From the NCBI RefSeq assembly GCF_044324785.1, contig NZ_CP172127.1: a stretch of 64,000 nucleotides of DNA. The stretch is one strand, 5' to 3'. Position numbers and translations under genes: made by a program. The stretch's first letter is position 1, and the number at the start of each line of letters is the position of its first letter. The notes beneath the pieces were generated by a model, which saw only the letters and a list, made by a program, of their open reading frames with translations, was not told the DNA's origin and searched no databases. Of this stretch, positions 57,243 through 57,509 are shown piece by piece. Origin of the DNA: Escherichia coli (GTDB taxonomy: Bacteria; Pseudomonadota; Gammaproteobacteria; Enterobacterales; Enterobacteriaceae).

Positions 57243-57246
<4 letters not shown>

Positions 57247-57509
57247 AAGAGTTTTTATTTTTGTTTCACTCCACGGTCGGCGTCATACAAACCCGCAAGG
57301 CGTTGCAGGCAGCGGGCATGACTTTTCGCGTCAGCGATATTCCCCGTGATTTACGCGGCGGCTGCGGGTTATGCATTTGGCTGACCTGTCTGCCCGGCGA
57401 GGAAATACAATGGGTGATCCCTGGGCAGACCGAAGCGATATATTGCCAGCAGGGCAGCGACTGGCTGTGCGTGGTACATTACGATGCAGAAGCGTCAAGC
57501 AGGCAATAG
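57243..57509 (+). CDS. Small Cys-containing conserved hypothetical protein (88 aa), translationally coupled to yjiL
   Basis: ATGA start/stop overlap with yjiL; protein MKEFLFLFHSTVGVIQTRKALQAAGMTFRVSDIPRDLRGGCGLCIWLTCLPGEE... Confidence 0.5.

Follow-up and report, generated by a model that had tools for sequence, protein, structure and literature searches.

ytiA, the third gene of the yjiM-yjiL operon of Escherichia coli, encodes a conserved DUF3343 protein and candidate sulfur or selenium carrier beside a double-cubane reductase

In Escherichia coli, a small open reading frame (ORF) begins within the last codons of yjiL, the second gene of the yjiM-yjiL pair, and this arrangement raises the question of whether the frame is a gene and, if so, what its product does for YjiM and YjiL. 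We addressed this in a 64,000-nucleotide stretch of one E. coli genome (RefSeq assembly GCF_044324785.1, contig NZ_CP172127.1; referred to here as the window), in which an earlier, sequence-only reading had singled out the frame at 57243-57509 as a possible third component of the yjiM-yjiL system. Our analysis identifies it as ytiA and suggests that its product is quite probably a functional partner of YjiM and YjiL, perhaps one that relays sulfur or selenium on a single cysteine. The features that concern the gene and the start of its translation are as follows.

57243-57509 (stop codon included), plus strand: ytiA orthologue, encoding an 88-amino-acid DUF3343/Se_S_carrier protein (PF11823), assigned from Pfam, RefSeq, orthology with K-12, and the ratio of nonsynonymous to synonymous substitution rates (dN/dS)
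57243-57246, plus strand: ATGA start/stop overlap read from the window sequence, with the ytiA ATG at 57243-57245 and the yjiL TGA stop at 57244-57246
57231-57235, plus strand: Shine-Dalgarno-like GAGGA in the window sequence, of putative function, inside the 3' end of yjiL and 7 nt upstream of the ytiA ATG

The frame runs from the ATG at 57243 to a TAG stop at 57507-57509, and both its 88-amino-acid length and its ATGA overlap with the yjiL stop are as the sequence-only reading described them. Length by itself says little: the window contains 125 ORFs of at least 88 amino acids, and mononucleotide shuffles yield about 44 per 64 kb, so the status of the frame as a gene must rest on other evidence. 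Its product matches the Pfam model PF11823 with 48.4 bits (gathering cutoff, 25; E = 6.5e-13), residues 4 to 59 aligning with profile positions 2 to 57 of 69. Pairwise comparison of codons 2 to 60 with the orthologues of Escherichia, Citrobacter, Superficieibacter, a soil metagenome-assembled genome (MAG), and Aeromonas gives dN/dS values of 0.09 to 0.26. The K-12 MG1655 orthologue is ytiA (b4715, YP_009518833.1; 85 amino acids, 4-nt overlap with yjiL), described as “uncharacterized protein YtiA,” and RefSeq names the product either “DUF3343 domain-containing protein” or “putative Se/S carrier protein.” Because of the PF11823 match, the low dN/dS, the conserved frame and start/stop overlap, and the annotation in RefSeq and K-12, we conclude that 57243-57509 is a protein-coding gene under purifying selection; that it is ytiA, and a member of the DUF3343/Se_S_carrier family, is virtually certain. 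PF11823 proteins are stand-alone and about 80 to 100 amino acids long, with one highly conserved cysteine, and YtiA, with 88 residues and Cys41-Gly42, conforms to this description. None of the NCBIfam models matches it.

ytiA is an already known and correctly annotated small gene, not a new one. The suggestion that it would be easily missed in annotation proved mistaken, since RefSeq annotates the ORF in about 99% of complete E. coli genomes (5385 of 5426), mostly under the name ytiA, which it also bears in K-12; the 2.7-kb segment comprising yjiM, yjiL, and the ORF is present in 5386 of the same genomes. Our literature search on E. coli ytiA/b4715 returned nothing relevant, the papers on “ytiA” being concerned with an unrelated L31 paralogue of B. 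subtilis. Among the roughly 5400 E. coli matches to the yjiM-yjiL-ytiA segment, three are plasmid-borne and not chromosomal.

The evidence that ytiA belongs with yjiM and yjiL comes from gene order. We aligned a diverse set of full-length YjiM homologues, scanned one genome per species with it, and in the 80 loci so obtained (about 13 kb each, including flanks of about 6 kb) searched the ORFs with an iterated DUF3343 hidden Markov model (HMM) and with YjiL. A DUF3343 gene was found in 20 of the 80 loci. The order yjiM-yjiL-ytiA was kept in all nine proteobacterial loci (E. albertii, E. coli, Superficieibacter, Citrobacter, Cedecea, the soil MAG, Morganella, and two Aeromonas), and the ytiA start overlapped the yjiL stop wherever the junction could be read; the E. 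albertii contig ends inside ytiA. The overlap takes the form ATGA or GTGA in Escherichia, Citrobacter, Superficieibacter, Morganella, and Aeromonas and is a 1-nt TAATG in Cedecea, and Aeromonas carries GGGAGG at the place equivalent to the GAGGA of the window. The overlap and its conservation indicate that ytiA is translationally coupled to yjiL. We regard the gene order and junctions together as strong evidence that ytiA is an operonic, cotranslated partner of yjiM-yjiL in Proteobacteria. A scan for promoters and terminators performed no better on the real sequence than on shuffles, and no terminator was found after ytiA. The coupling proposed by the sequence-only reading is thus borne out in the form of a conserved third operon gene, and the check by conservation and synteny that it recommended returned a frame kept under purifying selection in an order without exception among the proteobacterial loci.

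What kind of system ytiA has joined is clear from the two genes before it.

55318-56469, plus strand: yjiM, double-cubane-cluster-containing anaerobic reductase of the HGD-D fold (NF040772; 530 bits, cutoff 350)
56473-57246, plus strand: yjiL, ATP-dependent activase/reductase (BcrAD_BadFG; TIGR00241), for which RefSeq places the start two codons later, at 56479

The pair had been taken for a 2-hydroxyacyl-CoA-dehydratase-like system, a description that we would replace with that of a double-cubane reductase. In addition to its NF040772 score, YjiM has as its closest solved relative the [8Fe-9S] double-cubane cluster protein (DCCP) of Carboxydothermus hydrogenoformans (6ENO/7YYL; E = 1e-74), with conserved cysteines at positions 40, 59, 78, 108, 273, 302, and 335, while its scores against HadB and HadC (22 and 93 bits) fall far below the cutoffs of 750 and 700. 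The locus holds a single HGD-D-type gene, yjiM, and no heterodimeric alpha/beta dehydratase; ytiA is not a dehydratase subunit. Jeoung and Dobbek class YjiM/YjiL as a “class II” double-cubane system of two components (PMC7317905), in which YjiM differs from DCCP in having no channel-closing helices. Otherwise the likeness to DCCP and its reductase (DCCP-R) of C. hydrogenoformans (6ENO, 7YYL; Jeoung and Dobbek) is close: YjiM is homologous, with the conserved cysteine set, and YjiL is the cognate ATPase. YjiM/YjiL is the sole representative of double-cubane [8Fe-9S] reductases in E. coli. Among 10 long, multidomain YjiM-like proteins, the fusions seen were with activase and PucR-HTH (helix-turn-helix) domains only, and none was with DUF3343. 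One of these long proteins, P0122 (722 amino acids), has a YjiM-like HGD-D domain with a C-terminal PucR-type HTH_30 and may be either a genuine regulator-enzyme fusion or a gene-calling artifact. The gene just upstream of yjiM, yjiN (DUF445), is intact in the window (53790-55202); in strain N3, which gave the closest match within E. coli, it is annotated as a pseudogene with a frameshift (L001:1724-3003).

The sequence of YtiA itself narrows the choice of function, chiefly through its cysteines. We compared an alignment of Enterobacterales homologues (A1) with a set of the same type to which Firmicute DUF3343 proteins had been added (A4).

57252-57377, plus strand: conserved core, codons 4 to 45, FLFLFHSTVGV..RKALQAAG..FRV.DIPR.LRGGCGLC (A1, A4; PF11823 positions 2 to 57)
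57363-57365, plus strand: Cys41 codon, TGC, the sole family-wide invariant cysteine (CG motif), a putative persulfide or perselenide carrier (A1, A4)
57372-57374, plus strand: Cys44 codon, forming CGLC (CxxC) with Cys41 in Enterobacteriaceae only (A1, A4)

In A1 the N-terminal two-thirds of the protein is invariant (FLFLFHSTxGV...RKALQAAG..FRVxDIPRxLRGGCGLC) and the C-terminal third is variable. Across Proteobacteria and Firmicutes (A4), only Phe8, Cys41, and Gly42 are invariant besides the start methionine, with Pro34 nearly so. YtiA has five cysteines, at 41, 44, 49, 68, and 76, including those in the GGCGLCIWLTCLP and CQQGSDWLC strings on which the sequence-only reading remarked. Their number turned out not to be the functional feature that it had been taken for. 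Cys41 is invariant in A1 save for one frameshifted entry, and throughout A4; Lin et al. (2015; PMC5322559) also remarked on a conserved cysteine of DUF3343. Nearly all A1 sequences have Cys44 as well, but it is replaced by Ala in Aeromonas (CGLA), by Gly in Morganella (CGLG), and by Ala or Ser in Firmicutes, so the second thiol appears to be a lineage-specific gain. Cys49, Cys68, and Cys76 are lineage specific and not conserved in either alignment, and since this holds for Cys68 and Cys76, CQQGSDWLC is not a functional motif. AlphaFold2, run on A1, predicts with good confidence a small ferredoxin-like domain (predicted local distance difference test score [pLDDT], 87; predicted template modeling score [pTM], 0.78) of beta-alpha-beta-beta-alpha-beta-beta topology. 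In this model the family motif (D/x)IPRxLxxxCG, with Cys41, runs from the end of strand 2 into the loop that joins it to strand 3. Profiles built from A1 and A4 gave only nonsignificant matches to Protein Data Bank (PDB) sequences (E, 0.7 to 0.8). A selenocysteine (Sec) form of the motif, with TGA in place of the cysteine codon, had no credible instance in the sampled loci, the single match being noise.

Outside the Proteobacteria, DUF3343 again lies next to YjiM-like proteins, now in company that points toward sulfur and selenium. Of the 71 Firmicute YjiM orthologues in our sample (53 to 66% identity), only 11 are accompanied by a DUF3343 gene at a distance of up to 6 kb, and about 17 of the loci have at least one of DUF3343, a desulfurase-like gene, and YedF. 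The gene orders are the following.

L073: SelB, LysR, class-V aminotransferase (cysteine desulfurase/Sec-lyase-like), YedF, DUF3343, YjiM, YjiL
L068 and L069: desulfurase-like, DUF3343, YjiM, YedF
L044: DUF3343, desulfurase-like, YedF, YjiL, YjiM
L085 and L086: desulfurase-like (TIGR01977, 431 bits; SclA, 377 bits), 424- to 431-amino-acid protein, DUF3343, activase
L087 and L088: as in L085 and L086, with two CobW (COG0523) genes in place of the activase
Coordinates of the last two types of module and their relatives: L085:3265-7171, L087:3385-6261, L035:1938-5620, L074:5328-7711, L075:1916-4332

The 424- to 431-amino-acid protein of the L085-L088 type of module is itself an NF040772 double-cubane member (504 to 519 bits). 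The core of this protein, DUF3343, and activase is kept in L035, L074, and L075; the trio is preceded by a desulfurase-like gene in L035, and a search around it in L074 and L075 revealed no such gene. In L087 and L088, DUF3343 still accompanies the reductase gene even though no activase is adjacent. In the loci examined, which represent two phyla, DUF3343 and NF040772 proteins adjoin each other in no fewer than four gene orders. Twenty DUF3343 genes in about 0.9 Mb of sampled sequence is, as we judge it rather than as a computed statistic, far above expectation if genomes carry few copies. The L085-L088 modules, like the actinobacterial Slackia cluster Shel_25420-25470 (Lin et al., Table 1), share with the E. 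coli locus the combination of NF040772, PF11823, and a TIGR00241 activase. They differ in that DUF3343 comes after the reductase gene and before that of the activase, the double-cubane protein is a longer paralogue, the DUF3343 protein ends in NPxRDxYC, and a dedicated pyridoxal phosphate (PLP)-dependent desulfurase/lyase gene is present that the E. coli locus does not have. The NPxRDxYC end gives this 86-amino-acid DUF3343 a second, C-terminal cysteine; the L074 protein ends in NPYL without such a cysteine. In C. scindens, DUF3343 lies in a classical selenium cluster, selA-selB-LysR-desulfurase-YedE-YedF-DUF3343. We also noted that in some Lachnospiraceae, genes for URO-D-like (methyltransferase-type) and B12-binding-domain proteins adjoin the YjiM orthologues (L068:7804-8919, L070:4162-5905); in L068 they also stand beside YedF, an arrangement that recalls corrinoid or organometallic chemistry.

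Taken together, the single invariant cysteine and these neighborhoods lead us to propose that YtiA is a single-cysteine sulfur or selenium relay partner of the ATP-driven double-cubane reductase YjiM/YjiL, a combined mechanism that we rate at slightly better than even (a probability of about 0.55). Cys41 would be converted to a persulfide or perselenide, and the sulfur or selenium atom so held would move between YjiM and a PLP-dependent donor of the desulfurase or Sec-lyase type (or YedF), or else would leave YjiM in the direction of SelD. In Firmicutes the donor would be the dedicated PLP desulfurase/lyase together with YedF; in E. coli it would presumably be a housekeeping enzyme, IscS, SufS, or CsdA. 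In Enterobacteriaceae, Cys44 of the CGLC motif could act as a resolving cysteine for the Cys41 adduct. Small cytoplasmic proteins in which one essential cysteine carries a persulfide have a precedent in TusA and YedF (SirA-like). The resemblance is one of role, YedF occurring in the same Firmicute clusters as DUF3343; YtiA gave no match to PF01206 (TusA/SirA) at E <= 0.01, it has no CPxP motif, and TusA-type structures were not among the top fold matches listed. The cysteine of TusA and YedF sits at the N terminus of a helix, while that of YtiA is predicted on the loop from strand 2 to strand 3. The sequence-only reading had suggested a small redox or sulfur-carrier partner. Its second half agrees with the family name “putative Se/S carrier” used by Pfam and RefSeq, and its first half is disfavored by the presence of only one family-wide cysteine.

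Published comparative genomics bears on this proposal from two sides. Lin et al. (2015; PMC5322559) proposed DUF3343 as a selenium or sulfur chaperone with one conserved cysteine. They recognized no distinct selenium-specific subfamily, and the association with selenium or sulfur genes is thus not strictly defining for PF11823. Among the neighbors of DUF3343 in Slackia, their STRING table already includes a “CoA-substrate-specific enzyme activase” and a “2-hydroxyglutaryl-CoA dehydratase subunit.” Kayrouz et al. (bioRxiv 10.1101/2022.04.13.486033) counted duf3343 among the five genes most often overlapping selD. From the side of the reductase, Haft (bioRxiv 10.1101/2022.07.06.499078) found 955 of 970 strong NF040772 proteins in SelD-containing genomes; he suggested a part in the processing of selenium compounds or else, as something formally possible, a cofactor bridged by selenium. 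ytiA is not treated in any of these papers, nor do they name DUF3343 as the partner found next to double-cubane proteins, although public annotation contains the link implicitly. The archetypal PF11823 protein occurs in a context of YedE, YedF, Sec lyase, and SelD, and YtiA resembles it in size, profile match, and the invariant cysteine of the PR....CG motif. It differs in that ytiA in the window is accompanied by yjiM-yjiL only and that the Enterobacteriaceae have added the second cysteine. The yjiM-yjiL-ytiA locus thus joins two published hints, DUF3343 with selenium and double-cubane proteins with SelD, and the adjacency of both families makes a sulfur- or selenium-trafficking role of this reductase class testable in E. 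coli as a model.

Several observations weigh against the relay proposal. No YedF, Sec lyase, SelD, or YedE gene was found within about 6 kb of the gene in the window or in the nine proteobacterial loci, and at the E. coli locus there is likewise no desulfurase or other Sel gene nearby. About 85% of the Firmicute YjiM loci (60 of 71) have no DUF3343 within 6 kb, and a search with hmmsearch --max at E <= 50 found no divergent DUF3343 adjacent to yjiM in these negative loci; the enzyme therefore does not generally need DUF3343 in cis, and DUF3343 is not a universal cis-partner or obligate component of the YjiM family. A third gene linked in cis is seen in the proteobacterial operon, of which ytiA is a conserved member, and not at most of the Firmicute loci. 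The solved DCCP:DCCP-R system works in vitro with two components, and its description and reconstitution make no mention of a DUF3343 partner (PMC7317905). Our literature search found no experiment on YtiA or on any other DUF3343 protein, and the “carrier” label of the family is itself a comparative-genomics guess. Finally, by our own reasoning, reduction of a persulfide or perselenide does not obviously call for an ATP-driven low-potential reductase.

One extension of the proposal, which we consider possible but rather unlikely, is that YtiA and its DUF3343 relatives physically link double-cubane reductases to selenium metabolism, with YjiM/YjiL acting on selenium or sulfur bound to Cys41. 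If so, YjiM/YjiL would free or reduce selenium for SelD or take selenium or sulfur from YtiA for a chalcogen-bridged [8Fe-8S-X] cofactor, and the E. coli yjiM-yjiL-ytiA operon would be an unrecognized and genetically tractable branch of selenium trafficking.

Alternatively, YtiA might be a maturation or repair factor that supplies the bridging mu2-sulfide (or selenide) joining two [4Fe-4S] cubanes into the [8Fe-9S] cluster. This rests on the same synteny as the relay proposal and would suit the L087 and L088 loci, in which DUF3343 stays beside the double-cubane gene without an adjacent activase, as well as the modules in which the gene of the cysteine desulfurase family (the TIGR01977 match at 431 bits) lies immediately upstream of the DCCP-DUF3343 pair; the selenium-bridged cofactor considered formally possible by Haft (bioRxiv 10.1101/2022.07.06.499078) would also fit. 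We nonetheless think it improbable, given that most Firmicute YjiM orthologues have no linked DUF3343 and that the C. hydrogenoformans DCCP, described as a two-component system, was crystallized with an intact cluster (PMC7317905; 7YYL).

Equally improbable, in our estimation, is a regulator resembling PII or ACT proteins, in which metabolite binding or the redox state of Cys41 would tune the YjiL ATPase or YjiM and no sulfur or selenium would be carried. On our own reading of the model, the motif loop between strands 2 and 3 occupies the place of the PII T-loop, and PII/GlnK-like proteins share with YtiA a beta-alpha-beta-beta-alpha-beta topology and a conserved loop at that position; coupling of translation to that of an ATPase would also be in keeping with such a role. 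The structural similarity is nevertheless limited to a template modeling (TM) score of only about 0.5 at 10 to 17% identity, and YtiA has no nucleotide-binding motifs. Its invariant Cys-Gly is typical of covalent carriers or catalysts and not of PII proteins, and the repeated clustering with desulfurase/Sec-lyase-like and YedF genes points to sulfur or selenium chemistry.

Still less probable is a redox or electron-transfer protein for YjiL, working either through a dimeric Fe-S site made by CGLC or through thiol-disulfide exchange at the CxxC. The activase does require an electron donor (PMC7317905), CGLC is nearly invariant in Enterobacteriaceae, and a profile search aligned the motif, weakly (E = 0.8), with a CxxC stretch of formylmethanofuran dehydrogenase subunit G that is ferredoxin-like. 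That PDB match is not significant, and YtiA matches no Pfam ferredoxin, thioredoxin, or glutaredoxin model; the second cysteine, moreover, is missing from Aeromonas, Morganella, and all Firmicute homologues, and one family-wide cysteine is too few for a cluster site. We rejected both the Fe-S ferredoxin and the thioredoxin-like versions because a single cysteine is conserved and the predicted fold is ferredoxin-like, not thioredoxin-like.

The idea that the frame is a chance or decaying remnant without function, which might draw on the commonness of frames of this length in shuffled sequence, the poorly conserved 3' third with its recombination junction, and the failure to find a promoter- or terminator-like signal specific to the ORF, is effectively refuted by conservation and dN/dS: the frame and its start overlap are kept from Escherichia to Aeromonas, nearly all complete E. 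coli genomes have the ORF, the Pfam match is well over threshold, and the structure prediction is confident.

The 3' end of ytiA and the DNA beyond it vary within E. coli.

57423-57509, plus strand: variable 3' third of ytiA, codons 61 to 88, with the unconserved Cys68 and Cys76 and the junction of two E. coli allele classes
57818-59908, plus strand: gene for a 696-amino-acid pentapeptide-repeat protein between ytiA and yjiK, in segment 57600-60000

Compared with K-12 YtiA, the window protein is encoded at the same locus, in the same order and with the same 4-nt overlap, and there is hardly any difference over the first 60 codons (dN, 0.007); the two differ in length (85 amino acids in K-12 against 88), in their last 26 or so codons, which have diverged strongly, and in overall protein identity, which is 84%. 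Synonymous divergence (dS) from K-12 is 0.08 for codons 2 to 60 and 1.16 for the rest, and in the DNA alignment identity is lost after about column 248. The 88-amino-acid class is found at 95 to 99% identity in about 1471 E. coli genomes, O157:H7 and S88 among them, and the 85-amino-acid, K-12-type class in about 3800. This pattern is that of a recombination or indel junction inside ytiA, present at the level of the population. In K-12, yjiK directly follows ytiA across a gap of 64 nt; in the window, the two are separated by a pentapeptide-repeat gene of 2.1 kb and low GC content. The 57600-60000 segment, downstream of the 88-amino-acid allele, has a GC content of 31 to 39%, is absent from K-12, and looks like a strain-variable insertion. 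No complete E. coli genome matches the window at more than 98.1% identity. Within the 3' part of the pentapeptide gene, a tandem repeat at 59614-59796 (7.6 copies of 24 bp) encodes KQANDSTD-like units.

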